Source: an uncultured Clostridia bacterium
Lineage (GTDB): Bacteria; Bacillota; Clostridia; Christensenellales; CAG-314
Assembly (NCBI GenBank): GCA_947625725.1
Contig: CANQPI010000001.1
Location: 106,324 to 170,323, forward strand
Reading direction: 5' to 3'
Length of the DNA: 64,000 bases
In this document: piece after piece, positions 6,851 to 26,423 of the stretch
Layout of the letters: every line of letters starts with the position of its first letter
How positions within the stretch are numbered: position 1 is the stretch's first letter
Program-made: the position numbers and the translations under genes
Notes under the pieces: generated by a model
Told to the model about the DNA's origin: nothing
The model's database searches: none
Seen by the model: only the letters and a program-made list of their open reading frames with translations

Positions 6851-6933
6851 CCGACGGAACAATATTTTTGACGGTTGACGGGTTGCCGAACAGCCGTCGA
6901 AACTGCGCCAAGCGGCGCAAAAGGACGATATTT

Positions 6934-8493
6934 ATGAACAAACATATCACTGCATTGATAATCATGGACGGCTACGGTCTGTCCAAGCAGGAAAAAGGCA
7001 ACGCGATAGGCGTAGACTGTTCCCCCTATGTCAGGTATCTTATGCATACCTATCCCACGACAACGCTCAACGCGAGCGGTTTGGCGGTGGGACTTCCCGA
7101 GGGACAAATGGGCAACAGCGAAGTCGGACATCTCAACATAGGCGCGGGCAGGATCGTATATCAGGAACTTACGCGCATAACCAAATCCATTGACGACGGC
7201 GACTTTTTCCAAAACCCCGCCTTTCTCGGCGCAATAGAATCGGCAAAGAAAAACGGCGGCAAACTCCACTTGATGGGACTGTGCAGTAACGGCGGCGTTC
7301 ACTCGCACATAACCCACTTGTTTGCGCTTATCGAGTTGGCAAAACGCCAAGGTCTGGACAACGTGTACGTGCATTGCTATATGGACGGACGTGACGTCAG
7401 CCCCACAAGCGGCGCGGGGTTTGTTCAACAATTGCAGGACAAGATGGACGAACTCGGTTTCGGAGTTATCGCAACGGTTTGCGGCAGATACTATGCAATG
7501 GACCGCGACAACCGTTGGGACCGTGTGGAAAAGGCTTACGATATGTTGCTCGGCAAGAGCGAACATACCGCGACGAATGCGGTGCAGGCGCTTCGCGACA
7601 GTTACGAGCAGGGCGTGACGGACGAGTTTGTGTTGCCCACCGTCATAGTCAACGAGGACAATTCGCCCGTTGCCGCTATCGAAAACGGCGACAGCGTAAT
7701 TTTCTTCAACTTCCGTCCCGACCGCGCTCGCGAAATGACGAGAGCGTTTACTCAAAGCGGTTTTGACGGATTCAATTTGCACGGACGTCAACGCAGCGTG
7801 CATTGGGTGTGCATGACGCAGTACGACGAAAAGTTTGTTGACGTGGATATAGCGTTCCGTCCCGAAACCTATTCCGACACGCTGGGAGAATATCTCGCCA
7901 AGTTGGGCAAGACTCAACTGCGCATTGCCGAAACGGAAAAGTACGCGCACGTAACGTTTTTCTTTAACGGCGGCGTGGAAGCCCCCAACGAAAACGAAAG
8001 CAGGATACTCGTCCCCTCGCCCAAAGTTGCCACCTACGACTTGCAACCGGAGATGTCCGCCGAGGAAGTGTGCAATCGCGCCATTGCCGAAGTGGAAAAG
8101 GATAAATACGACGTGATGATCCTCAACTACGCAAATTGCGACATGGTGGGACATACAGGCGTCATACCCGCCACGGAAAAAGCCGTTGCCACCGTAGACG
8201 AGTGCGTTCGCCGCTTGGTGGAGTGCATTTTGAGTAACGGCGGCAGAGCGTTTGTAACTGCCGACCACGGCAACGCGGAAAAAATGCTGGACGACGACGG
8301 CAAACCTTTTACCGCGCATACCACCAACAAAGTTCCGTTCATTGCGGTGGACGAGGAACTGCGCGGCAAAGCGACCCTTGTAGAGGGCAATTTGTGCGAT
8401 ATTGCGCCCACAATGCTGTACGTGATGGGCGAAAAGATCCCCGCCGAAATGACGGGCAAAGTGCTTCTGAGCGTAAAAAAGGGCGTTTTGTAA
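6934..8493 (+). CDS. gpmI: 2,3-BPG-independent phosphoglycerate mutase
   Basis: MGNSEVGH, DMVGHTG, TADHGNAE. Confidence 0.99.
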   Translation: MNKHITALIIMDGYGLSKQEKGNAIGVDCSPYVRYLMHTYPTTTLNASGLAVGLPEGQMGNSEVGHLNIGAGRIVYQELTRITKSIDDGDFFQNPAFLGAIESAKKNGGKLHLMGLCSNGGVHSHITHLFALIELAKRQGLDNVYVHCYMDGRDVSPTSGAGFVQQLQDKMDELGFGVIATVCGRYYAMDRDNRWDRVEKAYDMLLGKSEHTATNAVQALRDSYEQGVTDEFVLPTVIVNEDNSPVAAIENGDSVIFFNFRPDRAREMTRAFTQSGFDGFNLHGRQRSVHWVCMTQYDEKFVDVDIAFRPETYSDTLGEYLAKLGKTQLRIAETEKYAHVTFFFNGGVEAPNENESRILVPSPKVATYDLQPEMSAEEVCNRAIAEVEKDKYDVMILNYANCDMVGHTGVIPATEKAVATVDECVRRLVECILSNGGRAFVTADHGNAEKMLDDDGKPFTAHTTNKVPFIAVDEELRGKATLVEGNLCDIAPTMLYVMGEKIPAEMTGKVLLSVKKGVL

Positions 8494-8520
8494 TTTGCCG
8501 ATAATTTTTCGTTTGTCAAC

Positions 8521-8557
8521 AACGAGCCGTACAAATTTTTGTGCGGCTTGTTTTTTT
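8521..8557 (+). terminator. Intrinsic terminator after gpmI
   Basis: AACGAGCCGTACAAA/TTTGTGCGGCTTGTT hairpin plus T run. Confidence 0.75.
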
Positions 8558-8676
8558 GCGTTCAATTACTTTACTAATCGTACAAAAAAGTGTTAGAATA
8601 TTTTCTAATTACAATTTTATTACGCGCACGTAGTGTGCGACAAAGTTGTAAAAGGTCAGCAATAAGGAGGGAAATT

Positions 8677-11600
8677 ATGAAACAACTAAAAAAGTTGTTG
8701 CTTGCGGTACTTTGCATTGCGCTTGTACTTACGGGTACTTTGTTGGTCGTGGCAGCCTGCGGCGAACAGGGTTACAAAGTGACGACCGAATATAACAACG
8801 AGCAAGGCACGGTGACGGTCAGCGCGCCTGCCGAAGGTACGCTCTTTGACGAAAACGAGCAAGCAACCATCACCGTAGAAGCAAAATCAGGCTACGAAAT
8901 AGCAAGTTTTGCCGTGTCGGGACACGCGGACGCCGCGTTGGACGACAACGGACAATATCAATTTGACGTAACCGCCGATACCGTCGTAACGGTGACGTTC
9001 CGCGGACTGTTCGGCGTAACGGTCACGGTAAACCCCGAGGGCAAGGCAAACTACGACCTCAGCACTCCCGAAAACCTCTCTACATATCACGACGGCGAAA
9101 AGGCGACTCTCACGGTAACGACCGATCCCGACTACTCGATAGAGGACGTCAAGGTCAACGGTGCGTCGATCGACGGCGAAAACGGCGTTTACGAATTTAC
9201 CGTAACCGAGCCGACAACTGTCGCTATCGAACTCAAACAAATGCGTTTCAACGTTACGATCGGGGCTAGTCAACACGGTTCGGTAGCCGTCAGCGCACCG
9301 CAAAGCGGCAACAAGTATTCCGAAAACGAACTTGTTACCGTCACAGCCGAGCCCGACGCCGACTACGCGTTGGACAAGGTGTTTGCAAACGGAACGGAGA
9401 TCGTCAAGAACGACGAGGACGCATATACCTTTACGGTAACGGCGGATACGACCGTAACCGCCACCTTTACCAAAGTCGCGTTCGAAATACGCACCACGGT
9501 AGATCCCGACGATAGCGCGACCGTGAGATACTCTCCCGAACAGGACAGATACAGCGAGGGCGACGTCGTAACTATCAACGCCGAGGGCGACCGTTTCCAC
9601 ACGGTCAGCGAAATCACCGTCAACGGCGAGCCGCTCAAAGCGACCGACGGCGAGTACAAATTTACCGTTCACGGCGATACCGACGTTGTTGTGACCACGC
9701 AGGAGGCGGGCATAATCACTTGCCACCTCAACCGCGAAAACGGCGCAACGGTAACGTTTTCTCCCCAAGAGGAAAAGTACTCTTTGGACGCGGTGGTGAC
9801 GGTAACAATTGTCGCAAACGCTGGATACGAGATCACTTCCGTCAAACTCAACGGCGAGCCTTTGGAAAACTACGCCGAATTTACCGTAACGTTTAGCGAC
9901 TACACCGAAAACGAGATCGAGATTGAACTTATTTCTCCCGCGGACAGGATAATAGACAACATGCAGGGCGGTTTGCACGTCCATGGCGTAATATCCGATG
10001 ATGACGGCGACGACTACCTTGTTATCGACAACTACTACGACGCAACAAACAACAGACTCTTGTTGCAGGTGACGGAGTACGGAATCCCCGACTTTGTTAT
10101 CCTTGCGGAAAAAACCGACGACGGGATATATTTTGTCAGTCATGACCCCGTTACCGGCAAGACGGAGCGAGATCTCGCCGCAGAAACTTTCTCTTGGGAA
10201 TTGTTCTGGAATCCGTTTGAACGAATGCAGTACAACGACTTGATCCAAAGCGACGAGTCGTGGAGTTTCGCCACGCTGTGGGCAACCGATCTGTTGCAAA
10301 GTTTGTCTATGTTTAACGAAACGGCTACCTCGTCGTCGGTCACGATCGTGGATAACAAGATCACGTCTTTCAAAATCGTGGGTTCGATCGGCGAATACAA
10401 CTTTACGGTAGACAACTTCGGCACGGCAACCATACCCGAAGATTTCCTCACCGACTACACAACGCCTACGGAACTGCAAACCGCGTTGCAAGCGGCGGGG
10501 AACGCCACGGCTTATTCCATTGACGTGACCGACTACTACGGAAAAATTGCTTACAAAGTGATCGTTACCGAGAAAGCGATCTATGACCAATCGCTCGGCG
10601 GCGGCTACTACGAGAGAGCGGACGGCAGCGTGTGGACGTTCGCATACAGCGAGCAAGGCGGCTTTGTCAAGGGTACACAGGTGTTGGACGCTTCTGTCGG
10701 CGGTATCAAAGAACTGTTTGCGCAATTTGCGTTGCAACGCGGGGACAACACATTCTATCACCTGTTCCGCGACGTGGGCGAGGGCAACTATCAACTGCGC
10801 ACGATAGATATGTATTTCGGAGCGGACTCCACCGAGATTGCTTCGGCAATGGCAAGTTACTTTGTAACGGTGGGCACCAACTACGCCGATTACTTTGACG
10901 AAGATATGGGCTTCATTCAAGAGTGGCTCAACCTGACTATCCAGAACGGCGCGCTTGTTTCGGCGGAATTTATCGGATTGGATGCGGAATATTCTTTTGT
11001 ACCGCTCCTTTTGGAATTCGACTTTGAAAACGTCACCCTGCCTTTCACTATCGACGAGGAGGACGTCAACGGCAACATAGATCCCGACTTTGTGGGTACT
11101 TGGGTGCAGGACGGCGTCAACTTCATTGTGGATATCGACCTTGACACGGTTGTTATCAACGGCATTGCGGCGGCGCGCGTCACAGCCAACGACGACGGCG
11201 GCTACACTGTATTCTGCGGTGTGACGACGTACACTCTCACTCTGGAAAGTCAAGCGCAGTCCGTTGCGCTCAAAGTGGTAGACGACGGCGGCAACGAGCG
11301 TATGCTTCGTTTGAGAACATGCCCTTGGGAAAAGATGGTCGGCATTTACACGGGTACGGCAACGCCTGCCGAGGGCGTAACCGACAGTCTGACGTTGACC
11401 ATTACCGAGAGCGGTTTGACCATTCGGTTGAGCCGCGACGGCGAAGTGTATATCAGCGGCACATTGCCCGCAAGTTCGTTCGGCTTTGTGGACGGCGACC
11501 AAACGATAATATACTTCCCCGTTGATCAAGGCGACACGGGTATAATATACGTCTACATACTGCTCCTGTCGGATAATCAAGCGGTATTGGTGCAAGTAGA

Positions 11601-13251
11601 AGACGATGTTTACTCTTACTTTGAAATTCAAGGCTTGGCGGCGGGTTACGATCCCAACAATTATGCAAGTTACAATGGCGAATACACAGGCGAAAACGGC
11701 ACCGATACGTTGAGCATAACCTCTGCGGGTATCACGATCAACGTAGGCGGACAAACCGTCACCGTAGCGGCAAAGGACATTACCTACGATCCCATCACCT
11801 ACACGACGCGTTTGTTCTTCTTTACGGCAGGCGGGGTTGATTACGTTTTGCAACAGTACGGCGCTACCTACGACAGATTGATGCTGTTTGTCGGCGACGA
11901 GGAAACAGGTATTTTGTTTGAGCGCAACGGTTTCAAATTCCCCTCGTGGGAGAGTTTTGTCGGCACGTTTGTAGGAGAAGATCAAGATCATCAATATACG
12001 GTCGAGATCACCAAAGACGCAATATCTTTCTACATCGACGATCAATCTCAATCCGTCAAAGTTACCGACTTCGATCAATACATATATGAAGATGAAGATG
12101 GAACCTACACTCATTTGTGGCGTTTCGAGTTCACGGTCGGCGGCAAGACGTACGCGCTGACTCAGGCGGACAGCGGAATTTACTACGCGCTGTTCCTCTC
12201 CGAACTGAACTCGCAAGGCGCCGAAACCGACTTGGCAACGTTGATCCTCGATCAAACCCGCGAGTTGGACGATTGGAGTCAATATGTCGGCGAGTACAGC
12301 AACGAAGACTACACGGTAGTTATTTCCGACGACTCTATCACAATTACCCCCGACAACGGTCAAGCGACTATCATTGCCAAACAGGATATTCTGTTCCGCG
12401 GTATGTTCGACTACGAGTACGAGGAGTTCTTCTACCAGTTCCGCTTTACTTACAACGGCAAAGATTGCGTTATCGAACCGGATAACAGCGTAGAGTACAT
12501 TGTGTTGGCATCGCTCAACGCAGACGGCGAAGCGGAGTCGCAACACATGCTCATCAACAAAAATTACGCTCTGCCCCAAGACATGCAGTTCGCTTGGTTG
12601 ATCAAAACAAGCGCAAACAGCGGCTATTGGGCAGGTACGGGCACGTCCTCCGCGCAAACCCCCTACGCGCTCAAAGTTACCCGCGACCCTGTCAGCGGCA
12701 AGTACACCGTTTTGTTGAAGATCGGCAACGCCGACTTTGCAGACATCACAAACAACTTTACGTTTATGAGAGATTTGAGCCAAGTCTATGGCGAATACGA
12801 AGCGAGCATATACATAACTTGGTTCTTCAATCTCAACGGCAAAAATTGGCGTTTGATTTACAACCTTGAAATCTCTCTCAGTCAACAGTACTACGGTGAG
12901 CAATGTATCATCAGCGACGGCACCGACAGCGCCCCGCTCGGCATGACCGACGAACCTACACCCGAGTGCAAGTGGAGCGAGTACCTTGGTACTTGGAAAG
13001 CCACCGACAGCAAGGGTGTGGTGTACACGCTTGTGGTGGATGTTGACAGTTTGCACATCACCTACGGCGACGTGGACTTCACGGTCAACGCTCAAACGGA
13101 CAGTTTCCGTTACAGCGAAGGTTTGCACAAGTGGACTTAGAGAGGCTCCGACGGCAAGGTTTGGAACATTCAGGAAGACAATGGCAGACTTGATATGTGG
13201 TACGACGACGCCACCGACTTCGACGTCTATTTGGAAAAACAAGCGGACTGA
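8677..13251 (+). CDS. Large acidic modular lipoprotein 1; in-frame TAG at 13138-13140 cuts off the last 36 codons
   Basis: AAGGAGG RBS, lipobox VAAC, five InlB-B-like repeats, central domain, ~7 GxW/Y modules; frame stays open after TAG to TGA 13249-13251. Confidence 0.8.
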
Positions 13252-13307
13252 CAAGCACACGGTACAGACAACTGCAATTTCAAGTCGGTTTTGACCGACA
13301 TATCCGT

Positions 13308-13334
13308 GAGGACGCGACCGTTCGCGTCCTCTTT
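13308..13334 (+). terminator. Intrinsic terminator after lipoprotein 1
   Basis: GAGGACGCG/CGCGTCCTC stem plus TTT; same stem as at 17683. Confidence 0.75.
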
Positions 13335-13535
13335 GCTATATTGTAGCAATTGTTGTCCCCCGTCGGGCAAATGAGCCTGTCTTACGCGTACCCAAAAAGC
13401 CCTCAAAGCGGTGTAATCGCGCCGAATTTCGCAAAAAATTCAATTTTATACGCGATTTTTGCCTCAATTCGTTTTACTATTTCGTTCAAATATGATAAAA
13501 TTGTATCAAATTTTTTTATGAGGAGGAAAAATTTT

Positions 13536-16500
13536 ATGTCACGTATAAAAAAACTTATTGTGGCTGTTTTGTGCGTTGTATTGGCAGTGACGGCGTCGTT
13601 GCTGGTATTTGCCGCATGCGACAAAGACGAAACAGGCTACAAAGTTACGTTAAACTACATCAAAGAGCAGGGTAGCGTAACTGTCAGCGCACCCGCAGAG
13701 GGCAAACTGTACGACGCAAACGAGCGCGTAACCGTCACGGTCACGCCCAATGCCGACTACCAAGTTGCCGCCTTCACGGTCAACGGCACGGCGCAAGAAC
13801 TCACCGACGGCACGACCTACGCGTTCGACATCACTGCCGACACAACGATAGCGGTGACGTTTGAGCCAAAGCCCGAAACAGGTTTCAGCCTTACTCTTAC
13901 TTTTGACGATCAACAAGGCACTGTAACGGCAAGTGCACCCGCCGAGGGCGTACTGTACGACGAAAACGAGAGCGTAACTATCACGGTCACGCCCAATACC
14001 GACTACCAAGTTGCCACTTTCACGGTCAACGGCACGGCGCAAGAACTCACCGACGACACGACCTACACGTTCCAAATTACCACCGACACAACGATAGCGG
14101 TGACGTTTGAGCAAACGGGTAGCCAGGACGAATGTCCTTGGACAGACATTATCGGTATTTGGGAAAAGGAACAAGACAACGTTCTGTATCACGTTGAGAT
14201 AACCGAAACCGACGTTATCGTCAAATTCAACGGCGTTCAACAAAATGTTACCAACGTCCATTGGATAGAAGAAGAGTTAATGATCTCCATTACGATAGAC
14301 GGCACAGAGTACTTCTTGGGTGATTTCTACGGAGCGCTTGGATTTGTTGATTCCGATTGGGAGTTCGTTGTTTACCTTACCCGCGTTCAAGGCGGCGGTG
14401 ATGTCGGCGGAGATGACGACAATCTGTTCTCGGCAGAACAAATCGGCACCTATGCAGGTAGTAATTTGGGTAGCGACAAAACGATAACGGATATTACCAT
14501 TACGATTTTTGAAGACAGCATTATCATCAACGGAGAACAAATTACCGATATCGAATACGACGCTGAGTACGGAGAATGGTCTTTCGTGAGCGACGGCAAA
14601 AACTATATTCTTTCTTTCGGCGGCGGACTTGTTATTTTGTCTACCGACGATTATAGCGAGTCGTACAGTCTTCATTCCGTATCCCCTTGGCTTCAATATG
14701 TCGGCAAATTCGAAACCGACCCCGCCGAGGACGCAGAGTACGAGTCACCTCACGTTATCCTTACGATAACGGAAGACAGCATAACCGTTCAAATTGCAGA
14801 TTAAAGTTTCACCGTTCAAGCAGCGGACATTACATTTGGTTGTGAAGATTTCGGCGAGGGTTTGGTTTTCAACTTGACTTTTGAACATGATTCAACGACA
14901 TATTATGCGTATTTTGCAAGCGAAGATTTCATTAACCTTATGAATGATGCCGACGAGGACTATATCGACGCTTATCTCTATCGTGCGGGTTCGCACGAAG
15001 TTTGCGAGTGGGCGGAACTTATCGGTACTTGGACGGGCAAAGGTACGTTGGGTAGCGGTTTCAGCACAACGCCGGTTGACGTTACGGTAGAAATTACCGC
15101 AACGGAAATCACCGTAACTATCGGTCAAGACGATCCGCAAACGGCTGAGCAAATCAGCGTTAGCGAGAACGACGGATACATTCTTACGTTTACTCTTGGT
15201 CAACAATCGTACACTTTCGACGCTTATCAAGGAGATGCCACATTTACAAACGGCGACGGAACTCTCTATGTAACATTGACGTTGCAAAATGCCGAGCCCA
15301 TCGAGTGGTCTGACGCGTGGTACGGCGAGTACCAAGGCGAAAAGAACGGCACGACCTACTATATAGAGATCACGTCCGATACAGTTAACGTTACTATTGG
15401 CGACAGCGGCGCACAAAGAGCCGAAATACTCGATTTCAGCGATTATGATGGCTTTACCATTCAACTCGACGGTACGACTTACACAATTAAAAGAGTTTTG
15501 AACCCTGAGGATCCATCTGACGAAATTATCCAACAAATAAAACTTGCCGACGAAGAATTTGAATTGCAAGTGACGTTGACCCGCAAAGAGGACGACAGCA
15601 ATAAAATCGACAGCAAGTACTTCGGCACTTGGACAGGAACGGACGCAAACGAAAATGACGTAGAAATTGTTATCACAGAAAACTCCGTTACCTGGAACGG
15701 CTCGTCTGTCAACTATTGGATAACTGACGGCAATTTGTGTTTCACCCGCATTGCCGATTACACGGCAACTGTCAGCGGCGACACGTTGACATTGACTCCC
15801 GACGCAAGTTCGTTTCAAGATCCGTTTACCCTTACCAGAACGGGACAAGGCGGTGACGAAGAACCGACGTGCGAGTGGGAGTACTATATCGGCACATATC
15901 GCGGTTATGACGGAACAAACTTCTTTACAATAACAATTGATGAAGATGGAATTACTATCACTATGAGTTCTTCATTTGGACCCAGACTGGCAACAGTAAA
16001 AATTGTTGAGTATGTGAGCGACGTTGAAGGTTTCATACTCAAAATCAACGACGAAACTCGCTTGCTTCAAAGTTCGGGTGGTACCGATGAATATTCTACG
16101 TTCCTCTCATGTGACTCCGAAGACCACGAATATTCATTCTATTTATCTCGTAGTGTTGACGATTTTGAATGGACTGAGTTTTCAGAAATAGCAGGTACTT
16201 GGACCGGTACGGAAACACTCGATCAAGGTGTTATGAGTTACTCATTGGTTATCAAGGCTGACGGCACAGGTAGTGCGACCGTGACAACTGACGAGGGAGA
16301 TATGCCCCTTGAAGATGTACGTTTCGAAAACAATGGTTATATTTGCATGTACTTCTCGCTTGGGTATGACTCCTGTTTAGTACTCTACTATGATGGAAAC
16401 AACCTTTATGCTCTTGCCGGAATGATGGGTGGACCTTTGACCCTTACCAAAACAGCCGGTGGCGACGAAGATGAACCCGCCAAAATTCCCGACAAATTTA

Positions 16501-17636
16501 TCGGCGAGTACTCTGACTCGGGATACGAAGTTACTATCACAGCGGATAGCATTACGATTACGATAAAAGGCACAACCGAAACGCCGAATTCAACATATAC
16601 TGCAACCAATATCAAGGTTGACGGCAACACGATTACTTGCACGGCTATCGGCGACACCTGCACAATTACGGCTATCGGCGACGGCGACAAGGCTCAACAA
16701 ATTACTCTCCGTATTCCTTCTATCGGAACGCGCACTCTCGATCGCAAAGCCGAGAGCGGCGGCGATACCGACTTGACCGAAGAAAGTTTCTATGGCACGT
16801 TCGAAGGCAATGGCTATACGCTTGTTATATCGGCAGAGGGAGTTACTTTCAGTGAGGCAGTTGGTGGCGACTTTGAAGTAACTGCGCATAGTTTTGACGC
16901 TGCAACAGACACTTACACGTTTACAAGCATGGGAATGAACTTTACAATTACCGCCGTGTCTGACGACAACCCTGTTACCACAATACATCTTGTCTGTGAC
17001 GACGCAGGTATTGCCGTTAATCTCACCCGCACAACAGCGGGTGACGACGACACAGGCTTGACCGAAGAAAGTTTCTACGGCACGTTTGAGGGCACTGACG
17101 GCTCGTCGATTACTATTACGGCAGAGGGAGTTACATCATTTAATGTGTCTGACATTGGTGAATTTTCCGGAACATCACACGAATTTGACGCCGCAACGGG
17201 TACATACAAGTTTACGGCTAACGGAAATGACTTCACAATTACCGCCAAGTCCAACGACAACCCGATTACTCAAATACTTATTCACCATGTACAAAATCAA
17301 CTTGGAGATATGACCCTCACTCGCAAAGCCGAGGAAGAAGAGCCCGCATGCGAATGGACAGAGTACATTGGTACTTGGTCCTATACGGAAGACTATGTCG
17401 AAAGTGAGGATGAGGTATATACGGTTGTTATCTCGGAAGATGGTTTTGAAGTTAGTTGCTGTGACGTTTCTTTCACGGTAGCCGCAAAGGACATTCATTT
17501 CGACCCCAAAACAGGTTTCACTTGGACTCATGAGGGGTTAGATTATCATCTTGAAATAGAAACGGACGGTACCCTTAAATTTTATGACGACAGTTACAAG
17601 GTTGCTCCGGAAGTTGGTCTTTCTCGCGAGGCGTAA
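13536..17636 (+). pseudogene. Large acidic modular lipoprotein 2, interrupted by one in-frame TAA (14802-14804)
   Basis: AGGAGG RBS, lipobox FAAC; ORFs ending 14804 and starting 14862 share a frame and are joined by sense codons (QIAD*SFTVQAADITF). Confidence 0.8.
13680..14111 (+). repeat. Near-identical intragenic duplication of an InlB-B-like domain (period 246 bp)
   Basis: VTVTPNxDYQVAxFTVNGTAQELTD twice, with long identical DNA stretches. Confidence 0.85.
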
Positions 17637-17680
17637 CTCATTGCACAAACTTGATTAACACAACTATTTGCAATCACCCC

Positions 17681-17711
17681 AAAGAGGACGCGAAACCGCG
17701 TCCTCTTTTTT
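17681..17711 (+). terminator. Intrinsic terminator after lipoprotein 2
   Basis: AAAGAGGACGCG-AAAC-CGCGTCCTCTTTTTT. Confidence 0.85.
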
Positions 17712-17721
17712 ACGTCCGACG

Positions 17722-17905
17722 GCAAAATCTCTCGGAACAAAATCGCAAAATCTCACGGAACAAAACCTTGAAATCTCACGGAATGAAAATGCAAAATCTC
17801 ACGGAATGAAAATGCAAAATCTCACGGAATGAAAATGCAAAATCTCACGGAATGAAAATGCAAAATCTCTCGGAATGAAATCGACAAATTTCACGGAATG
17901 TATCT
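17722..17905. repeat. Tandem array of eight 23-bp units, consensus GCAAAATCTCACGGAATGAAAAT
   Basis: Units start at 17722, 17745, 17768, 17791, 17814, 17837, 17860, 17883; three central copies identical, edge copies degenerate. Confidence 0.95.
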
Positions 17906-17951
17906 GCAAAATATTCTTTCCCTCAAAACGCTTGGTTTTGCAACTACTTTG

Positions 17952-18061
17952 TTTTCGGCAAAAATACGATCTTGTCGCATTTTTGCCGAAAAATTTGTAT
18001 GCAACTGTTGATTTTTTTCTGTTTTTCGGCTAAAATAAGATTGTATCGTATTTTAGTCGGA
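17952..18061 (+). promoter_or_regulatory. Two related palindromes and promoter of the ATPase gene
   Basis: Half-site TTTCGGC(A/T)AAAATA(C/A)GA in two inverted pairs; TTGATT-17-TAAAAT at 18008-18036. Confidence 0.65.
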
Positions 18062-18069
18062 GATTTAGT

Positions 18070-19287
18070 ATGAATTACATCAAGCGAGATATGGAAAAAG
18101 CGGTAACGGAAGCGTCGCGCGAGTATAGTTGTATTTTGGTAACAGGTCCGCGTCAAGTGGGCAAAAGTACCATGTTGGAACATCTCGACCCTGCTAGAAA
18201 CAGCGTAACATTGGACGATTATTCCGAGCGACAACTTGCCTCTACCGACCCCGAAATGTTTTTGAAACTACATCAACCGCCCGTCTTGATAGACGAAGTG
18301 CAATATGCGCCGCAACTGTTTTCCTATATCAAAATTGCAATAGATCGAGGCGCAGCCCCCGGCAGTTTTTGGCTGACGGGATCGCAAAGTTTTAGCCTTA
18401 TGCGCCTTGCGCAGGAAAGTTTGGCGGGCAGAATTGCCGTTTTTTCGCTCGGGGCGTTGTCGCAACACGAGTTGTACGGGAGCGGAGAGTTGACGCCTTT
18501 CGACGCGTCGTTGGATAGTTTGCGACAAAGGATACAGCGCAACGACGTCGCCACGGTAGAGCAGGTTTACCAACGTATATGGGAGGGCGGCTTGCCGGCG
18601 TTGAACAGCGGCAAATTCACCAACAGGGATATGTACTATTCGGGCTACTTGCAAACTTACTTGACCCGTGACGTCAAGGACGAATTGGCGTTGAAGGACG
18701 ACTTTAAGTTTGCGGACTTTATCCGAGCGGCGGCGTGTCGAACGGGACAGCAACTCAACGTTCACGCTATCGCCTGCGACGTAGAGGTGAGCGACGATAC
18801 CGCCAAACGTTGGCTTGCAGTGTTGGAAAAGTCCAACGTGGTGTTTTTTTTGCACCCATATAGCAACAATTTGCTCAAACGCACGGTAAAATTGCCCAAA
18901 ATGTACTTTTTCGATACGGGACTTGTGTGCGCGCTTACCAAACACCAAACGCCCCAAGTGTTGCAAAACGGCGCGCTAAACGGCGCAATTTTGGAAAACT
19001 TTGTCGTTGCGGAAATACGCAAATCTTTCCTTAATTGCGGCATAGAGCCCTCCTTGTACTATTATCGGAACAAGGACGGTGCGGAAATCGATTTGATAGC
19101 GGAGTACAACGGCGTACTGCACCCGATAGAAATAAAAAAATCTTCCGATCCCAGCCTGAGCGTGGCAAAAAATTTCAAATTGATCGCTTCTGCGCAAAAC
19201 GCGGGTTGCGGCGCGGTGTTGTGTTTCAAAAACACTCTCACGGCGTTGAACAGCGACGTTTTTGTTGCGCCGATCTGGTGCATATAG
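18070..19287 (+). CDS. AAA_14/DUF4143-type ATPase with C-terminal PD-(D/E)xK nuclease-like domain
   Basis: GPRQVGKST, LIDEVQ, LTGSQ, ESLAGR, PKMYFFDTG, EIDLI...PIEIK. Confidence 0.9.
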   Translation: MNYIKRDMEKAVTEASREYSCILVTGPRQVGKSTMLEHLDPARNSVTLDDYSERQLASTDPEMFLKLHQPPVLIDEVQYAPQLFSYIKIAIDRGAAPGSFWLTGSQSFSLMRLAQESLAGRIAVFSLGALSQHELYGSGELTPFDASLDSLRQRIQRNDVATVEQVYQRIWEGGLPALNSGKFTNRDMYYSGYLQTYLTRDVKDELALKDDFKFADFIRAAACRTGQQLNVHAIACDVEVSDDTAKRWLAVLEKSNVVFFLHPYSNNLLKRTVKLPKMYFFDTGLVCALTKHQTPQVLQNGALNGAILENFVVAEIRKSFLNCGIEPSLYYYRNKDGAEIDLIAEYNGVLHPIEIKKSSDPSLSVAKNFKLIASAQNAGCGAVLCFKNTLTALNSDVFVAPIWCI

Positions 19288-19405
19288 ATTTTTTGCCGCC
19301 TTTTCGGCGTGTACGTTGTGCCGATAACGGCGTTGAAACCGTGAACCGTCAGACCAATACCCTTTTGCTTGACAATTTTGACGAAAAATGAAACAATATA
19401 CGTAT

Positions 19406-22036
19406 ATGAAGAAATTACGCAAAATTTTGATAGTTCTACTTTGTGCCGCGCTTGCCTCGGTATTTTTGGTCATGCTTGTCGCTTGCCGACCCGACGATAC
19501 GCCCGTCCCCAAGCCCGATCCGACCCCGACGCCGCAGGGCTACTCCGTAACCCTCGATTTTGACCAACAGCAAGGCTCGGTAACGCTCACCCCGCCCGCA
19601 AACGGCGACAAGTACGTCGCCGACGAAAACGTCACGATTACGGTAGCGGCGGCGCGTGGCTACAAAATCGCGAGCGTAACGGTAGACGGCACAAACGTCA
19701 AACTTGTCAACAACAAATACTCCTTTGCGGTCGCGCGGGATACTGACGTCGTCGTTGCATTTGCTCCGCTTACCGAGCAGGAACTTGCCATAGAAAACGC
19801 TATTTACGCAATAAAAGATTCCGCGCTGTTCGACGCGACAATGGTCGAAGAAGATCTCGACACGCACCAACAGTTTGAAAGCGTTTACAAAACCGCCTTT
19901 GACGAAACAAATCACGCCGCGCTTTTCGACTCCTATTACAACGGCGCAATTTATTCCACATTGTTGATAGCGGACGTGCAGGGCAAGGCGGCAATTGTGT
20001 CGCACGACGAATTCGGCAAGGTCGTGAGGGACGTTTCCGAAGAAGACTTTGCCGACTACGACAATCCTTTCAAGGATTTGACCTGGCAAGATTTTACCTA
20101 CAACGGCGACTCCAAGTGGAGCATTGACGATCTTGCCGTTGCGCAACGTATCGTCGCCACTCTCACAACCTACTACGAAAACGTAACTTGGTTCGAATTG
20201 ACCGTGCGGCAAGACGGTTCCGTCGGCATATTCGTCGAGTGTCAGGACGGCGCGCTGAACGTTGCGCGCACCTACGACATAACCGTCGTTACCGAGGGCG
20301 TTGACGGTTCGCTTTCCTCTCGCTTTGCCGACTACGAGGAAACGGCGGAACACGAAACGCTTCGCCAAGCGTTGCAAAATGCCGCCGACGCTACGAGTTA
20401 CACGGTCGGCTATCATAGAGTTGAGTTAGGCGAACCCGACGTTGACGGACATTTCTTCGTTACTCCCGACGGTCTGTACGAGGATCTTGTCGATTGGGAA
20501 AACGGCTACGTTACTCGTCCCGACGGCAACGTGTGGCAGTTTTTCAAAAACGACGACACGGGCGAATTCTATTTTTCGCCGGACTTTCTCAAAAACATTG
20601 ATTTGAGCGACCTCGGCGCGGATTTCGTGATACAAGAGGCGAGCCTGTCGTTGTTGCAGTATCGCGGCGACGGCGTGTTCGCAATGCGCTTTGAGGATAC
20701 CGTTATGGACGGCTACTATTCGCTGTTCCCCGGTTACTTTGCGCAATACTTTGCAACTGGCTTGGACGAACCGCGTTACTTTTCTACGGCTATCTCATTT
20801 GAGATCGAGTTGCGCGACGGCGTATTGTACCGCGTGCATTTTGTCTACGACTATTACGGGCAGATCAGCGAGGATGTTACCCTCACTTTCGGCAATTGGA
20901 ACAGTACCGAGTTGCCGATAACCCTCTCCGACGACTTTATCAACGGCACCGTCGAGGGCGACTACTGCGGCAGTTGGGCGGACGACAGTTTTGCCTACGC
21001 GCTCACCGTCACGCCTGATACCGCTCGGCTGAACGGCTACGACGCCGAGAATATTGTCAAAACGGCAAACGGCTACGAGTTCCAAGCGGGCGGCAGAACT
21101 TACCGCATGACGCTCAACGGCGACACCCTTGTGTTGCAGGACGGCTCAACGGCGGTTTATCTGCACCAAACGCAGTGCCCGTGGTTGGATTTCCTCGGTA
21201 TTTACAGCGGCGCGGACGGCAACGACGTTCCGTACAGCGTGGTGATAGGCGAAAACACCCTCACGTTGTTTGCGGGCGGAAGCATTACGACTATCGGCGA
21301 ATTCGAGTTCGGTTTCGAGTTTTCGCAACAGGAAGAAACGTATATCTACACCTTTGACTTTGTTTGCAACGGCGCGCACGCCTTTTTGTACCTCAACGCC
21401 AATCAGACCAATCAATTTGTGTACGGCGAGGACCACGACAACGACGCCGACGACAAAACGGTGGTGCTTACCATTGCCGATTGCCGCTGGGAAAAATTCC
21501 TCGGAGCATTCGAGGGGGTCGAAAACGGCGTTACTTACAGGGCTGTCGTCGCTCCCTACGGCGTGTACCTGTTTGACGGCGACGGCACAATGTACGTTGC
21601 GCAAAACATCGAGTACAACAGTTACGAGGGCTTTACTTTCGACGTGGAAGGCGCGGAGGACAGCGTGTGTTTGGGTCAAAACGGCTACACGCAAGAGGTC
21701 AAGTCCGTCGCTCTGTATTGGGAACACACCATACGTCGCAATGTGGAAATGGATCGCGTAACTGCGGGCGGAGCGGTGCATCCCACCGACGAACTGTTCA
21801 TGCAGGAGTTTTGGGGCACGTGGGTCAGCGAGGACGGCTCCGTCACCATGGTGATCACCGCCAACAAGTTGACGATAAACGGCGAGGAGATCGCCGCCTC
21901 CTACGACAATATGGGCGGCTACCAAATCAAGTGGGGCGTTTACGTGGCAATGGAAATTGCCATTTGGAAGGGCGACGGTTGGCTGGTTCTCAGCAACGAC
22001 GACACCTCGGTGGAAATGTACTTCAAAAAGGTCTAG
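19406..22036 (+). CDS. Large acidic modular lipoprotein 3
   Basis: Lipobox LVAC, Pro-rich linker, one InlB-B-like repeat, central domain, 4 GxW/Y modules; start could be 19388. Confidence 0.85.
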   Translation: MKKLRKILIVLLCAALASVFLVMLVACRPDDTPVPKPDPTPTPQGYSVTLDFDQQQGSVTLTPPANGDKYVADENVTITVAAARGYKIASVTVDGTNVKLVNNKYSFAVARDTDVVVAFAPLTEQELAIENAIYAIKDSALFDATMVEEDLDTHQQFESVYKTAFDETNHAALFDSYYNGAIYSTLLIADVQGKAAIVSHDEFGKVVRDVSEEDFADYDNPFKDLTWQDFTYNGDSKWSIDDLAVAQRIVATLTTYYENVTWFELTVRQDGSVGIFVECQDGALNVARTYDITVVTEGVDGSLSSRFADYEETAEHETLRQALQNAADATSYTVGYHRVELGEPDVDGHFFVTPDGLYEDLVDWENGYVTRPDGNVWQFFKNDDTGEFYFSPDFLKNIDLSDLGADFVIQEASLSLLQYRGDGVFAMRFEDTVMDGYYSLFPGYFAQYFATGLDEPRYFSTAISFEIELRDGVLYRVHFVYDYYGQISEDVTLTFGNWNSTELPITLSDDFINGTVEGDYCGSWADDSFAYALTVTPDTARLNGYDAENIVKTANGYEFQAGGRTYRMTLNGDTLVLQDGSTAVYLHQTQCPWLDFLGIYSGADGNDVPYSVVIGENTLTLFAGGSITTIGEFEFGFEFSQQEETYIYTFDFVCNGAHAFLYLNANQTNQFVYGEDHDNDADDKTVVLTIADCRWEKFLGAFEGVENGVTYRAVVAPYGVYLFDGDGTMYVAQNIEYNSYEGFTFDVEGAEDSVCLGQNGYTQEVKSVALYWEHTIRRNVEMDRVTAGGAVHPTDELFMQEFWGTWVSEDGSVTMVITANKLTINGEEIAASYDNMGGYQIKWGVYVAMEIAIWKGDGWLVLSNDDTSVEMYFKKV

Positions 22037-22103
22037 TGACGGAACGTTCTGCATTTTGTAAACGTGCCCGTATTGAAATAACATACCAAAGGAGAACAAA
22101 ATC

Positions 22104-25100
22104 GTGAAAACTGCAAGAAAAATATTGATGGCATTGCTGTGTTGCGTTTTGCTTGCGGCAACGGCGTCGCTTGCCGTTGCCTGCGACACGGGTTACAGCG
22201 TGGCGGTAGAGTTCGAGCAAACACAGGGTACGGTCGCCGTCAGCGCACCGTCGGACGGCAAGGCTTACCGCTCGGGAGAAAAGGTGACGGTTACGGTTGA
22301 GCCTGCAAACGGCTACGAAGTCGATCAATTTACCGTCAACGGCAATGCCGCAGAACTTGTCGAGGGAAAGTATATTTTTGAAATAACCGAAGATACCCTT
22401 GTCAAAGTTACGTTCCGCGACGTTCGACCCGCAGAGTACACAGTGGACTTACAGGTTTCGCCGTCAGAGGGGGGGGGCACAGCCGAATTGAACCCTTCCG
22501 CGCAAAACGGTTTGTACGCCGAGGGCGAAACGGTGGTATTGACGGTAACTCCCGCAACGGGCTATGTTGCGAACGTAACGCTTAACGGTCAACCCGTAAA
22601 TTTGATCGCAGGCAAGTATTCCTTTGAGGTGCGGACGGATTCGCACTTTGTAGTTACTTTTACCGCTCTTGCGGACAAAGTTTTGCAATCGTTGCGCGGT
22701 ACTCTTCTGTTCGACGGCGAGTGCGTGGAAACAGACTTCGCTTTCAACGAAAAAACATCAAAAGCATGCAGCGCGTTGTTTGACGCAACGCACAGAGCCG
22801 TGCTGTTGCAACGTTGGTACGGCGCCGCCGTCGAATTTGTTCGGTTGCACAAGGACGTTGACGGCAAAGCCGCGCTTGTTTCTCACGACGAGGACGGAGT
22901 GGTGTCAAATCAAACTACAGATATCGATTTTGCGGATATTTTCAATCCGTTTGAACTGTTGACCGCCGACGACATCGAGATGACGGAAAAGGGCGTTTGG
23001 AAAATTTCCGATCCCGAAAAGGCGGCAAAAACAGCCAAGGCTCTTACGGGAAGAACGGAACAAATCGAGAACGTCGAACTGTACGATATCGACGGAGAGG
23101 CAGTGCGCGTCGCCGTTATATTGCCGAGAGTGCAAAGCGGCAAATGGATCGACTACCAAACCGTTTACACCTTTGAAGTGACGGGTCGCGGCGAAGTTAT
23201 ACCCGACGAATGGTTTCAGACTTATCAAGCGACCGCCGCGCATAGCGAACTGACTTCGGCTTTGCAAGCAGCCGCGCAAGCCGACAGTTACAAGGCGGTG
23301 TGCCGCGTAGAAGAAGACGGCGGCAAACCCTATACCTACAACATTTACTACACGCCGCAAGGCATATATCAAGATTTGGAGGGACAACAGCAGGGTTGGT
23401 TTGTCCGCGCGGACGGCGTTGTGTGGGGCTTTGACTACGACGCGGAAACGCAGCAAGTGACGCCCAATATGCAAATTTTGGAGAATTCGCAGGGGTTGGA
23501 TTACCTCAAAGCCATTTTCGACCGCACCTATGCCGGCAAAGAGTTTGCAAACCTGCTTGAAAGCAAGGGCGACGGCGTGTTCGAACTGCGCCCGATAGAC
23601 GTCGCGGTGGACTTTGACTCCACGGGTATCGCCGAGCAACTCGGACAGGCTTTTGCAACGGGCGTAACGCAAGTATTGTCTTTTGCCAAGGCTTCCGCAG
23701 TCAAAGTAACCGTCCGACAGGGCGCGCTGTATCAAGTAGAACTGTACTACAATTACTACGGTTCGGAGCGCGTAACGCTCACCTTTGAAGAATGGAACAC
23801 GACAACTTTGCCCATTACGATCGACGACGCCGCGCGCAACGGAAGCGTTCCCGCAAATTTTGTGGGCAGTTGGACGAGCGAACACGGCGACGTCAAGTTG
23901 GAAATGTCCTTGGACGGCATAAAACTCAACAACGATCGCGCAACCTCATTGAACTCCTTACAAGAGGGCGGCGTGCAATTTTCCGTTTCCGACGTGACCT
24001 ACACCGTGACCGCGCAGGATAACGCAGTGTTTCTTAGCGGCGGCAAATACGTATCGGAAAAGTTGGTGCAATGCGATTGGTCGTTCTTTATCGCAGATTA
24101 CTTTACGCAAAGCGGCGAGGCTCAAAACTTTACTTTGCAGATAACCGCTTGGGACTTTGTTATAACTCAAAACGGCGGTCAAGTTCAACGCGCCCAAGTG
24201 ACGGGATTTGAACGGTACACCGACGGCGAGGACAAATACTATCGCTTTACCGTAAAATTCGGCGACGCCGATTACGTTTTGGATCAAAAGGACGACGGCG
24301 ACGACAACGTTTGGCTGTGGTATGCCTCGGGACAAACTCGCAACGACGGCGTTACCGTTTTGCGCAACCGCAGAGAGGCTTTGCAAAGTTGGAACAATCG
24401 TCTTGGTACTTATGTCGGCGGCGGTTACACATTGACGATCGAGGCAGACAAACTTACCTTTGGCGACGCAAACGGAAACAAGACGTTCGCAGCAGATCAA
24501 TTTGTATATTACTCCGATTGGGACTATCAAAACGAGCGCACTTTCTACCGTTTCGAATTCGAGTTCGACGGCAAACAAGCGTTAGTGCAACCCTCTTCAA
24601 GCGGAAACTACATGACGTTGACTATCGGCGACGTTGTGTGCCGCTTGATAGACAGCGAGTACAAACAGGATTGGACAGGTCAAGAAGGCAATTTTGAAGG
24701 CGTTTCGAACAACGTCAAATATACGTTGGAAATTACGGATACTACGGTGTTCCTCACCATTGGCGACGGCGACAAGACGGAGGCGCAAAATTTGTTTTAC
24801 GACACGTCCGAGGGATTTTTGTTTGCGGTAAACGGCGTGGAGTATCGTTTCAAGAGTTACTTCAACTCGTGGGGCAATCTGGAATTCGGCGGCGACAGTA
24901 TTACGTTGAACTACGTTGAACCGCAACCGGAATTGCCCGATTGGAAAGATTATATCGGCACATTCGAGGGTATTTCCGACGGCAAAACTTACACTGTGCG
25001 TATAACGGCGGAGGGATTGATCCTATCTGTTGACGGCGTCGAAAGCGTTGCGCAAGATTTGTCTTTCGAATCCGTTTCGGGGTTGTTTGCCTACGACGAA

Positions 25101-25769
25101 TTTACTTTCACCATTGACGGCGTTGAGTACTCGTTAATGTCTGATAACGACTCTCACAACTCAATGACGCTGTCCTGCGACGAAACGGATCTGTATGTAA
25201 TGGGTATGACCCGCAAAAAGGAATGTGCTTGGCAAAAGTACGTCGGTACATTCGAGGGAACAAGCGGCGGCAAAACCTATGTCGTTACCATAACAGAGGA
25301 CGGCTTGACCGTCGCGATAGACGGCGTCGAAATCGTTGCGCAGGATCTGTCGTTCGACACTGTTTCAAGTTGGCTTGGTGCCTATGACGAATTTACTTTC
25401 ACCTTGGACGGCAACGGTTACACGTTGGATTCCGACGACGACGTCGGCAAAAAGATGACGTTAAGTGCAGATGATGGGTCCGTTTATGCAAGTATGGAAC
25501 GCACGGACGGCGGCGGCGAAAGTTACAAGATGTCGGAGCAAATTATCGGCAAGTGGCGTACTGCTGACGGAAGTATCGAGGTGGTTATTACCGAAGATTC
25601 CGTCACAATCAACGGCGAAGAAGTCGCCGATATGGAAATCGACCAATTTGGTGAACCGAGTTTTACCTGGAAGGGCAAACTGTTTTTGACAACCACCTAC
25701 GACGGACAGTCAATGGACCTGTTTGACGAAGAAATGGAAGAGGAATACACCCTCAACAGGGTCGAGTAA
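22104..25769 (+). CDS. Large acidic modular lipoprotein 4 (G9 tract at 22469-22477)
   Basis: AAAGGAG RBS with GTG, lipobox AVAC, two InlB-B-like repeats, central domain, ~7 modules. Confidence 0.85.
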   Translation: MKTARKILMALLCCVLLAATASLAVACDTGYSVAVEFEQTQGTVAVSAPSDGKAYRSGEKVTVTVEPANGYEVDQFTVNGNAAELVEGKYIFEITEDTLVKVTFRDVRPAEYTVDLQVSPSEGGGTAELNPSAQNGLYAEGETVVLTVTPATGYVANVTLNGQPVNLIAGKYSFEVRTDSHFVVTFTALADKVLQSLRGTLLFDGECVETDFAFNEKTSKACSALFDATHRAVLLQRWYGAAVEFVRLHKDVDGKAALVSHDEDGVVSNQTTDIDFADIFNPFELLTADDIEMTEKGVWKISDPEKAAKTAKALTGRTEQIENVELYDIDGEAVRVAVILPRVQSGKWIDYQTVYTFEVTGRGEVIPDEWFQTYQATAAHSELTSALQAAAQADSYKAVCRVEEDGGKPYTYNIYYTPQGIYQDLEGQQQGWFVRADGVVWGFDYDAETQQVTPNMQILENSQGLDYLKAIFDRTYAGKEFANLLESKGDGVFELRPIDVAVDFDSTGIAEQLGQAFATGVTQVLSFAKASAVKVTVRQGALYQVELYYNYYGSERVTLTFEEWNTTTLPITIDDAARNGSVPANFVGSWTSEHGDVKLEMSLDGIKLNNDRATSLNSLQEGGVQFSVSDVTYTVTAQDNAVFLSGGKYVSEKLVQCDWSFFIADYFTQSGEAQNFTLQITAWDFVITQNGGQVQRAQVTGFERYTDGEDKYYRFTVKFGDADYVLDQKDDGDDNVWLWYASGQTRNDGVTVLRNRREALQSWNNRLGTYVGGGYTLTIEADKLTFGDANGNKTFAADQFVYYSDWDYQNERTFYRFEFEFDGKQALVQPSSSGNYMTLTIGDVVCRLIDSEYKQDWTGQEGNFEGVSNNVKYTLEITDTTVFLTIGDGDKTEAQNLFYDTSEGFLFAVNGVEYRFKSYFNSWGNLEFGGDSITLNYVEPQPELPDWKDYIGTFEGISDGKTYTVRITAEGLILSVDGVESVAQDLSFESVSGLFAYDEFTFTIDGVEYSLMSDNDSHNSMTLSCDETDLYVMGMTRKKECAWQKYVGTFEGTSGGKTYVVTITEDGLTVAIDGVEIVAQDLSFDTVSSWLGAYDEFTFTLDGNGYTLDSDDDVGKKMTLSADDGSVYASMERTDGGGESYKMSEQIIGKWRTADGSIEVVITEDSVTINGEEVADMEIDQFGEPSFTWKGKLFLTTTYDGQSMDLFDEEMEEEYTLNRVE

Positions 25770-26271: not shown

Positions 26272-26423
26272 CATAACGTGCATTTTGCGGGGACGACACA
26301 AGTCGTCCCTATTTTTTGGCTCTGCGGGCGGTTTTGCGCGTCGCGTTTGGCGGGACGCCGACCGACGAACAGAAAGATAAATTTGCCGAAAATAAATTTA
26401 ACAAACGGGAACAAACTTTATAT

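Follow-up and report, generated by a model that had tools for sequence, protein, structure and literature searches.

Four paralogous genes (g1 through g4), all on the plus strand and each encoding a lipobox, occupy positions 8677-25769 of the window, the 64,000-nucleotide stretch of DNA analysed here (Table 1). An earlier note on this DNA had described four paralogs with a similar signal peptide and lipobox, 5/2/1/2 InlB-B-like repeats, a central domain absent from g2, 7/12/4/7 modules of approximately 95 amino acids, extreme acidity, and a terminator stem common to g1 and g2. This description holds almost in full, as detailed for each feature below, and the note overlooked the TAG codon in g1, a TAA codon in g2, and the ATPase gene between g2 and g3. 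The ATPase gene is an interloper in the array that is unrelated to the lipoprotein family, and the 23-bp tandem repeat is probably also not part of this family. A fifth paralog resides on a different contig (C11:42246-47243). The g1 and g2 terminators share the stem arm pair GAGGACGCG/CGCGTCCTC, which occurs at just these two sites genome-wide. No Rfam family matches between positions 8300 and 30500, and no tRNA or tmRNA was found in the window.

Table 1. Features of the lipoprotein array and its non-family elements (window coordinates).
Feature	Position	Strand	Details
g1	8677..13140	+	1487 aa as encoded; premature TAG at 13138-13140; lipobox Cys28; 5 InlB-B repeats, aa 42-418; central domain 9931-11079; 7 modules from 11071
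g1 in-frame continuation	13141..13251	+	36 codons plus TGA (13249-13251); completes last predicted barrel module
Terminator hairpin 3' of g1	13308..13331	+	-18.8 kcal/mol; z -5.35
g2	13536..17636	+	lipobox; 2 InlB-B repeats, aa 44-191; 12 modules; no central domain
Terminator hairpin 3' of g2	17681..17708	+	-20.5 kcal/mol; z -6.58
23-bp tandem repeat	17722..17912	.	8.3 copies; single locus in whole genome
AAA_14/DUF4143 ATPase gene	18070..19287	+	between g2 and g3; matches PADLOC candidate defence family PDC-S01
g3	19406..22036	+	876 aa (882 aa if start is 19388); 1 InlB-B repeat; central domain 19778-20953; 4 modules, 20945-22033
g4	22104..25769	+	1221 aa; 2 InlB-B repeats; central domain 22659-23849; 7 modules, 23841-25766
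G9 homopolymer in g4	22469..22477	+	encodes Gly-Gly-Gly of SEGGGT; candidate slipped-strand site

Two of the four genes are interrupted. The TAG codon in g1 is a strain-specific nonsense codon (TGG>TAG), and strain variants P0085 (1522 aa) and P0086 (1527 aa) have Trp in its place. An alternative genetic code or readthrough was rejected as an explanation because these variants carry Trp (TGG) at this position. In g2, an in-frame TAA (14802-14804) divides the gene into ORFs of 422 and about 920 codons, and the ENA protein P0088 terminates at the same stop. Metagenome pattern scans for the g2 TAA in other strains gave no match, and a word search with this stop read as X returned the 920-aa fragment from the window as its sole match. 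The GC3 value falls along g2 from 0.56 to 0.44, and no DNA match to a donor of the low-GC 3′ part was found among 46 congeners. In addition, one ENA assembly carries g4 split after amino acid 899. As half of the array genes are thus broken, this strain may be losing the family or may be able to do without it.

The lipoboxes read from the translations are VAAC (g1), FAAC (g2), LVAC (g3), and AVAC (g4), each preceded by a K/R-rich n-region and then a hydrophobic h-region. The phenylalanine at position -3 of the g2 lipobox is unusual. The genome encodes both Lgt (LGT, 177 bits) and LspA (Peptidase_A8, 115 bits), each with a score above its cut-off, and Omp85 was not found in this 93%-complete genome. 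The host is probably a single-membraned member of the gut Clostridia (rabbit gut). The family proteins, which have masses of approximately 96-180 kDa, comprise 16-18% D+E but 4-7% K+R, and family ORFs rank 1, 3, 8, 9, 10, and 15 by net acidic fraction among 986 non-overlapping genome ORFs of at least 200 codons.

All four proteins exceed the gathering cut-off (23.6 bits) of the Pfam model Flg_new_2 (PF18998), with scores of 50.3, 41.2, 24.6, and 31.7 bits for g1 through g4, respectively, and a separate custom HMM yields InlB-B copy numbers of 5/2/1/2. The combination of a lipobox and an N-terminus of the Flg_new or Flg_new_2 type also occurs in seven of nine other large ORFs scanned in the genome.

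The central domain of about 390 amino acids can be aligned among g1, g3, and g4, and is missing from g2. Residues N96, D105, Y186, L195, L199, Y208, and R304 are invariant. By sequence, this domain is isolated: none of 15 members matches any Pfam family below an E value of 0.05, nothing meaningful emerges from NCBIfam, the best PDB match has an E value of 0.098, and hhalign gives a probability of 0.2% for a relationship between the central domain and the module. Likewise, no stand-alone central-domain proteins of 210-723 aa were found. The model (pLDDT 95.9, pTM 0.89) has a DSSP string that consists of two similar halves, in each of which a long antiparallel sheet comes after a helix. Foldseek aligns this model with probability 1.00 over about 200 columns to LolA proteins from eight species (8v1k, E value 4e-5; 7z6w, 2zpc, 4ki3, 9gtx, 8veh, 2w7q, and 1iwl). 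RseB is also among the matches. The LolA matches have E values of 4e-5 to 6.5e-4 and TM-scores on the target of 0.39-0.50, and each covers approximately half of the central model. From the model we infer that the central domain comprises two LolA-like lobes, each with a helix and a long, curved antiparallel sheet.

The remainder of each protein is formed by the modules of about 95 amino acids, for which the HMM returns 7/12/4/7 significant stretches in g1 through g4. Examined unit by unit, g1 has six clear modules and a degenerate seventh at about aa 1311-1432. The earlier note had the modules opening with C-x-W followed by G-x-(W/Y/F). The second element is nearly universal, with G-x-[WYF] present in 26 of 27 window modules, but C-x-W is found in only nine; these counts are from alignment A1, which includes 27 of 30 units and omits two with stop codons and the degenerate one. 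The AlphaFold model of the module (pLDDT 93.3) has nine strands, and the module profile aligns convincingly with PDB entries 3ge2 (E value 3e-4) and 5cyb (E value 3e-3). At the fold level the model displays the antiparallel, eight-stranded, +1 beta-barrel of the calycins, and the module is predicted to be a small calycin (lipocalin-like) barrel of eight to nine strands. Foldseek finds no match to the module at E values of 0.001 or below in the PDB, nor does a fold search of a viral library. None of 38 modules reaches the 22.4-bit cut-off of Pfam Lipocalin_4 (PF13648), to which three match weakly (best E value 0.009; 14.3 bits for the sixth module of g4), and five match DUF3471 weakly. A comparison of the window modules with the GxW modules of the C2 lipoprotein gives an hhalign probability of 8%. 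Thus a match to a characterised family, which the earlier note had reckoned would speak against its reading, exists in part: the fold is known and one matching lipoprotein is structurally characterised.

Kernel lipocalins are about 160-180 amino acids long, carry G-x-W in the first strand, and have a C-terminal alpha-helix packed on the barrel. Assignment of the module to this group was rejected, as it spans approximately 95 amino acids, has no DSSP helix past its last strand, and retains just G-x-[WYF].

The family is lineage-restricted and confined to few lineages. The module profile detects it in 11 of 47 genomes of the genus, with one to six copies each, and not in the other 36; it is present in six of 301 genomes of the order and in none of 400 other genomes of the class. 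The array occupies the site between gpmI and secG, and its neighbours are housekeeping genes. The same site is empty in five congeners that lack the family, where pgk-tpiA-gpmI-secG-rnr is unbroken, while genome G014 has three family genes at this location and a family gene adjoins secG in G010, G019, and G325. In G010, what had looked like a degraded module upstream of rnr is in fact an open reading frame, intact and continuing past the contig end. A mobile-element origin was rejected: tblastn of g4 against phage and plasmid collections gave no match, and the family proteins match nothing in PHROGs or PADLOC.

The central domains cluster with orthologs from other species, and therefore the paralogs are old and predate speciation. 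Within the species, strain variants of g1, g3, and g4 share 96.4-98.7% protein identity, differ in length by one to five residues, and have the same layout. By contrast, strains vary in the 3′ modules of g2: in another strain g2 is approximately 860 nt shorter at its 3′ end, and the contig from one run steps back 285 nt at modules 10/11, which implies an extra module. Contigs from metatranscriptomes match parts of g1 and g2 at 95-99% identity, although transcription is not provable from such contigs; similarly, the lack of contigs on g3 and g4 in run X8 is not evidence of silence.

We lean toward the view that these are lineage-restricted, acidic surface proteins, anchored by an N-terminal lipid and engaged in non-enzymatic binding, whose diversity arises by birth and death at a gpmI-secG hotspot. 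The lipid would hold each protein on the outer face of the cytoplasmic membrane. From there would rise a stalk of one to five InlB-B (Flg_new_2) beta domains, a generic element shared with at least seven other large lipoproteins in the genome, followed by the central domain with its two putative LolA-like lobes. Outermost would be the chain of four to 12 predicted calycin barrels as the exposed, distal part, an orientation inferred solely from the N-terminal anchor. Such an arrangement would most likely serve in adhesion or would capture a ligand, whether host-derived, dietary, or hydrophobic, with specificity and reach varying among the paralogs. Diversity would be generated by ordinary means: genes are duplicated or lost, modules are gained, lost, or replaced, and nonsense mutations arise. 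The coding G9 tract could plausibly serve as a fast ON/OFF switch, for g4 only.

The earlier note had proposed a variable surface repertoire built by module shuffling. Variability is indeed evident in copy number, in the empty or filled state of the chromosomal site, in the 3′ modules of g2, and in nonsense alleles, but the proposed shuffling is not supported by the sequences of the modules. Identity between modules is mostly 20-35% at the protein level, with three pairs at 50-57%, and the best module pairs at the DNA level reach 70-77%; because of this divergence, the modules are too dissimilar for homologous recombination. The longest DNA repeats in the array are 149-202 nt with 70-87% identity, and there are no long near-identical cassettes. 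Furthermore, no inverted repeats are present between positions 8500 and 26000, there are no recombinase genes or domains in the array or its flanks, the paralogs are old, and strain variants maintain a stable layout. The surface proteins vary slowly between species and strains, without a dedicated shuffling mechanism.

These same data make it unlikely that the array undergoes programmed antigenic or phase variation, in which homopolymer slippage, reversible nonsense or frameshift alleles, and module recombination would produce fast switching within a population. The architecture of g1, g3, and g4 is constant in all strain variants seen, and no G tracts are present in the promoter regions of g1, g2, and g3. 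Nevertheless, several observations are consistent with programmed variation, including the stop codons in g1 and g2, the split g4, and the implied extra module and shortened 3′ end of g2. Likewise, the G9 tract in g4 is the one candidate hypermutable simple repeat within the array genes (g1 through g3 have none) and one of two coding G9 tracts in the genome. Strain variant P0081 reads SEGGGGT where g4 reads SEGGGT, with its extra Gly exactly at this tract, although a strain difference of 3 nt points only weakly to slippage. Genome-wide, runs of G or C drop to zero at length 7, yet 37 tracts of 8-11 nt lie beyond this gap, which also favours programmed variation. Eleven of these, all G10-11, fall within the spacer that separates a TTGAC(A/G) hexamer from a -10-like hexamer in front of other, large genes encoding a lipobox, and such tracts in -35/-10 spacers count on the same side.

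It is a doubtful extension of these observations that the lineage might run a genome-wide poly-G contingency system, with the array as part of a switchable coat of a previously undescribed fibril type. If true, such a fibril would carry a double LolA-like domain on a lipid-anchored InlB-B stalk and, beyond it, as many as 12 calycin barrels. If the promoter poly-G tracts vary in length, they would constitute a phase-variation system of the kind known from Neisseria, Treponema, and Mycoplasma, no description of which was found for gut Clostridia in a limited literature search. The promoter tracts may then matter more than the array itself.

Also improbable is a function in ligand scavenging, wherein barrels and LolA-like lobes would provide multivalent capture of hydrophobic or small molecules, such as lipids, sterols or bile acids, pigments, or cofactors, and feed them to uptake systems. 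The barrel fold of the module is common to avidins, FABPs, and lipocalin-type lipoproteins, and the consistent matches to the central domain are LolA carriers of lipoprotein acyl chains, such as 7z6w ('Complex of E. coli LolA and lipoprotein'). With a genome of 1.68 Mb, the organism may also depend on scavenging. However, barrels of about 95 amino acids are smaller than ligand-binding lipocalins and FABPs, the Lipocalin_4 cut-off is missed, and no transporter genes are located in or beside the array amid its housekeeping neighbours. Quite unlikely, finally, is a structural or protective coat that has no specific ligand, in which an acidic brush of barrels or an S-layer-like shield guards against phage, bile, or host peptides: acidity in the top 1-2% of the proteome, repeat-number differences that would alter the reach of the chain, the dispensability of the family in many congeners, and the candidate defence gene within the island all fit, but no S-layer or SLH domains were found, and the conserved two-lobed central domain with its invariant residues points to a specific function more than to passive spacing.

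To our knowledge, almost nothing is known of the surface proteins of uncultured gut Clostridia. The small beta domains that make up the proteins described here are of known kinds; the family layout of an anchor, Ig-like repeats, an apparent double LolA-like domain, and four to 12 predicted calycin barrels was not found in Pfam or in the literature searched. The family thus offers concrete targets for structural and binding studies, as well as a natural experiment, since the same chromosomal site lacks these genes in some species and holds one to five of them in others.

Among known systems, the pneumococcal 'lipocalin lipoprotein' SP_0198 (3ge2 and 5cyb, named as in the PDB titles) resembles the module by profile match, but is a protein of about 150 amino acids with a single barrel, rather than four to 12 chained after InlB-B repeats and a central domain. 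LolA, LolB, and RseB are lipid carriers with an unclosed beta-barrel, and the consistent Foldseek matches of the central domain, each over about half of the model, are to LolA. No PDB chain or Pfam family is related to the central domain by sequence, and two apparent lobes are fused within a putative surface lipoprotein of an organism in which Omp85 was not found. Eight-stranded barrels also occur in surface lipoproteins of diderms, namely fHbp, TbpB, and NHBA of Neisseria and TP0435 and Tp0751 of Treponema, but these have a different envelope context, one or two barrels per protein, and no visible sequence relation to the family. The Vlp, Vsp, and Vsa proteins of Mycoplasma are likewise families of surface lipoproteins that vary in size by repeat number, and homopolymer-controlled surface genes (Neisseria, tpr of Treponema, pili of Bifidobacterium) likewise carry tracts in coding regions or promoter spacers. 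In those systems the repeats are near-identical and switching is demonstrated, whereas the array modules share 20-35% identity and no switching has been observed. A further likeness, drawn without a claim of homology, is to AimA of Aeromonas (PDB 6b7l), which is a secreted gut-bacterial protein, not a lipid-anchored one, with two calycin domains and with an immunomodulatory function shown by experiment.

Each of the four paralogous genes in the array (g1 through g4) encodes a signal peptide and a lipobox, as the earlier note had described, and both Lgt and LspA are encoded in the genome (93% complete), in which no Omp85 was found. Given this combination, a single membrane probably holds the array proteins on its outer face. 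The extreme acidity ascribed to them is borne out as well, with ORFs of the family ranking 1, 3, 8, 9, 10, and 15 among the 986 genome ORFs of at least 200 aa. Very long ORFs (up to 1457 aa) also run antisense to, and in register with, real genes. These arise because the sense codons TTA, CTA, and TCA are nearly missing (0, 1, and 1 occurrences in the 1487 codons of g1), and we reject them as genes.

Features of the array and related sites; positions without a contig label are those of the window, and C-numbers are contigs of the source genome (G000)
Feature	Position	Strand	Remark
g1	8677-13140	+	lipobox VAAC; premature TAG at end
g2	13536-17636	+	lipobox FAAC; interrupted by in-frame TAA
23-bp tandem repeat	17722-17912		GCAAAATCTCACGGAATGAAAAT, 8.3 copies; between g2 terminator and ATPase gene
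AAA_14/DUF4143 ATPase gene	18070-19287		between g2 and g3; full-length match to PADLOC candidate defence family PDC-S01, E 7e-99
g3	19406-22036	+	lipobox LVAC; other possible ATG at 19388
g4	22104-25769	+	lipobox AVAC
G9 tract in g4	22469-22477
Large lipobox gene with a coding G9 tract	C2:5713
Promoter-type tract sites (examples)	C3:7205, C3:47682, C4:42802, C10:21625, C11:9585, C11:38024, C14:30175, C15:13492, C23:13786, C30:919, C38:2234
Antisense ORFs (rejected)	8887-13260, 6841-8565, 26418-28478	-
GH20 hexosaminidase gene	54116-55618
GH95-like glycoside hydrolase gene (L011)	6420-7499 of locus L011 (on C11)		after fifth paralog

Purpose-built HMMs reproduce the earlier counts of 5, 2, 1, and 2 InlB-B repeats and of 7, 12, 4, and 7 modules in g1 through g4, respectively (six of the g1 modules are clear and one is degenerate), and the Pfam family Flg_new_2 scores over its cut-off in all four. 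The motif said to open each ~95-aa module stands only in part: G-x-[WYF] is nearly invariant (26 of the 27 window modules examined have it), but C-x-W is present in just nine. An AlphaFold model from a 38-module alignment (pLDDT 93.3) forms a compact nine-strand antiparallel barrel. The module profile matches sequences of the pneumococcal 'lipocalin lipoprotein' SP_0198 (PDB 3ge2, 5cyb) with E values of 3e-4 and 3e-3 across the G-T-Y motif and the next strands, such that homology between the two gains support, and Pfam Lipocalin_4 and DUF3471 match modules below their cut-offs. Therefore, the module is a divergent lipocalin-like barrel outside existing Pfam families. Its fold also matches streptavidin, Tp0751, the fHbp C-barrel, and FABPs; the source paper for AimA, an Aeromonas secreted protein with two calycin domains (PDB 6b7l), is PMC6219842.

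The central domain (~390 aa) can be aligned across g1, g3, and g4, whereas g2 lacks it, in agreement with the earlier description. No relation to Pfam, PDB sequences, or the module was found for it, and Flg_new_2 is the sole meaningful family in all 32 homologs scanned. Its very confident model from 54 sequences (pLDDT 95.9, pTM 0.89) has two similar halves in its secondary-structure string, each with a long helix, at least six long strands, a second helix, and more strands. Consistent Foldseek matches are confined to LolA lipoprotein carriers of eight species (prob 1.00, ~200 columns, E 4e-5 to 6.5e-4), and RseB is also among the matches. From this one run with the whole domain, we read two putative LolA-like lobes. 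Full-length matches (BFA1, a phage Phi11 device, PCNA) are not meaningful, with rmsd values of ~20-25 Å.

On balance, we lean toward a lipid-anchored binding protein that spans the cell wall. An N-terminal lipid anchor would hold the protein, the InlB-B repeats would form a stalk, and a double LolA-like domain would separate this stalk from a distal chain of calycin barrels, with diversity arising through slow birth-and-death evolution. The scavenging of hydrophobic ligands, which the likeness to FABPs and LolA might bring to mind, seems improbable.

A repertoire built by module shuffling, as first proposed, is not supported, since the modules are 20-35% identical and near-identical cassettes are not seen. 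Only three pairs are closer (g4m5/m6, modules 5 and 6 of g4, 57%; g2m10/m11, 50%; g2m12/C11m11, 54%). DNA repeats in the array are short and 70-87% identical, there are no inverted repeats, and no recombinase gene lies in the array or its flanks. Strain variants are 98.2-98.7% (g3), 98.1-98.6% (g4), and 96.4-97.0% (g1) identical, with lengths within 1-5 residues. In an independent rabbit-gut run, one contig is collinear and ~98% identical across g1 and on through the initial 2.3 kb of g2, and further contigs cover the ATPase gene, g3, and g4 at ~98.7%.

Another route to variation may be offered by G tracts. Genome-wide, G/C runs of 3 through 7 nt number 22704, 4353, 773, 22, and 0, and those of 8, 9, 10, and 11 nt number 5, 10, 20, and 2 (37 tracts, peaking at 10). 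Eleven G10-11 tracts, three of them identical copies, precede lipobox ORFs (279-3351 aa) by 40-140 nt. Judged by eye, each occupies a -35/-10 spacer of 14-20 nt, with TTGAC(A/G) on one side and a TATAAT-like hexamer on the other. This placement is the classic arrangement for transcriptional phase variation, and the tracts are candidates for a poly-G phase-variation system acting on surface lipoproteins. Promoter-type tracts are absent from g1, g2, and g3. Exactly at the tract inside g4, one strain variant has an additional Gly, and the second coding G9 tract has the same gaGGGGGGGGGca context. We regard programmed switching as unlikely. A passive acidic coat, for which the charge of the proteins might be cited, is unlikely too.

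The family is rare. A word search with g3 returns four clusters, and the central domain is matched by 71 representative clusters among 1.84 billion. Within the genus, 11 of 47 genomes have family genes (1-6 copies each); within the order, the figures are 6 of 301 genomes and 3 of 150 genera. At E <= 1e-6, the module profile has no match among 400 other genomes from the class. Relatives with names are rabbit-gut MAGs of uncultured Clostridia, and the family is not described in the literature searches made. The order pgk-tpiA-gpmI-secG-rnr is unbroken in five congeners lacking the family, while the gpmI/secG gap holds three family genes in genome G014 (7, 5, and 5 modules) and five genes in the source genome; in G010, G019, and G325, a family gene adjoins secG. 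From a gap empty in some congeners and filled in others, we infer that the array is an insertion hotspot whose content varies from species to species. A fifth paralog on contig C11 (1666-aa frame, ~11-12 modules) adjoins a GH95-like gene, which with the GH20 gene in the window gives a weak hint of glycan foraging. A tree of 17 central domains places g3, g1, and the C11 gene beside other species' genes, with long branches, indicating that the paralogs are old. The terminator stem reported as common to g1 and g2 is confirmed, in that a 9-nt hairpin arm follows both and occurs nowhere else in the genome, which supports a duplication that took in the 3′ flank.

Several observations speak for a degree of plasticity. 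Stops or frameshifts affect g1, g2, and, in one other assembly, g4. Past the g1 TAG, the same frame runs 36 codons on and completes the last module. Trp stands at this position in a 1522-aa (97.0% identical) and a 1527-aa (96.4% identical) strain variant, both taken from other assemblies, which identifies the TAG as a TGG>TAG nonsense allele of the source genome. A 316-aa protein of another assembly, 99.7% identical to g2, stops at the same place as the g2 TAA (14802-14804), and a word search with g2 read through the stop found no intact copy. The 3′ part of g2 in the independent-run strain is ~860 nt shorter and <90% identical to the window, and a contig of another run jumps back by 285 nt at modules 10/11, a pattern that implies one more module. 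GC3 along g2 drops from 0.56 to 0.44 (0.60-0.74 in other family genes), which suggests that its 3′ part is foreign or decaying.

The mid-array ATPase is unrelated to the family; like the stop codons in g1 and g2 and the fifth paralog, it goes unmentioned in the earlier note. The tandem repeat preceding its gene is confined to this locus in the genome and lacks an Rfam match, and one strain's contig diverges just 3′ of it (17899-18025). Elsewhere, at least seven other large lipobox proteins (C2, C4, C15, and C39; loci L012, L027-L031, and L033) carry N-terminal Flg_new or Flg_new_2 followed by long uncharacterised bodies. One of them has almost the signal peptide of g1, and another, at C2:5713, is the one with the second coding G9 tract. 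At 58000-64000, where GC falls to ~38%, the window carries genes for a Flg_new/BspA-LRR protein, for a protein of 1285 aa with a weak alpha/beta-hydrolase match, and for an ABC ATPase, and this segment may be foreign DNA.
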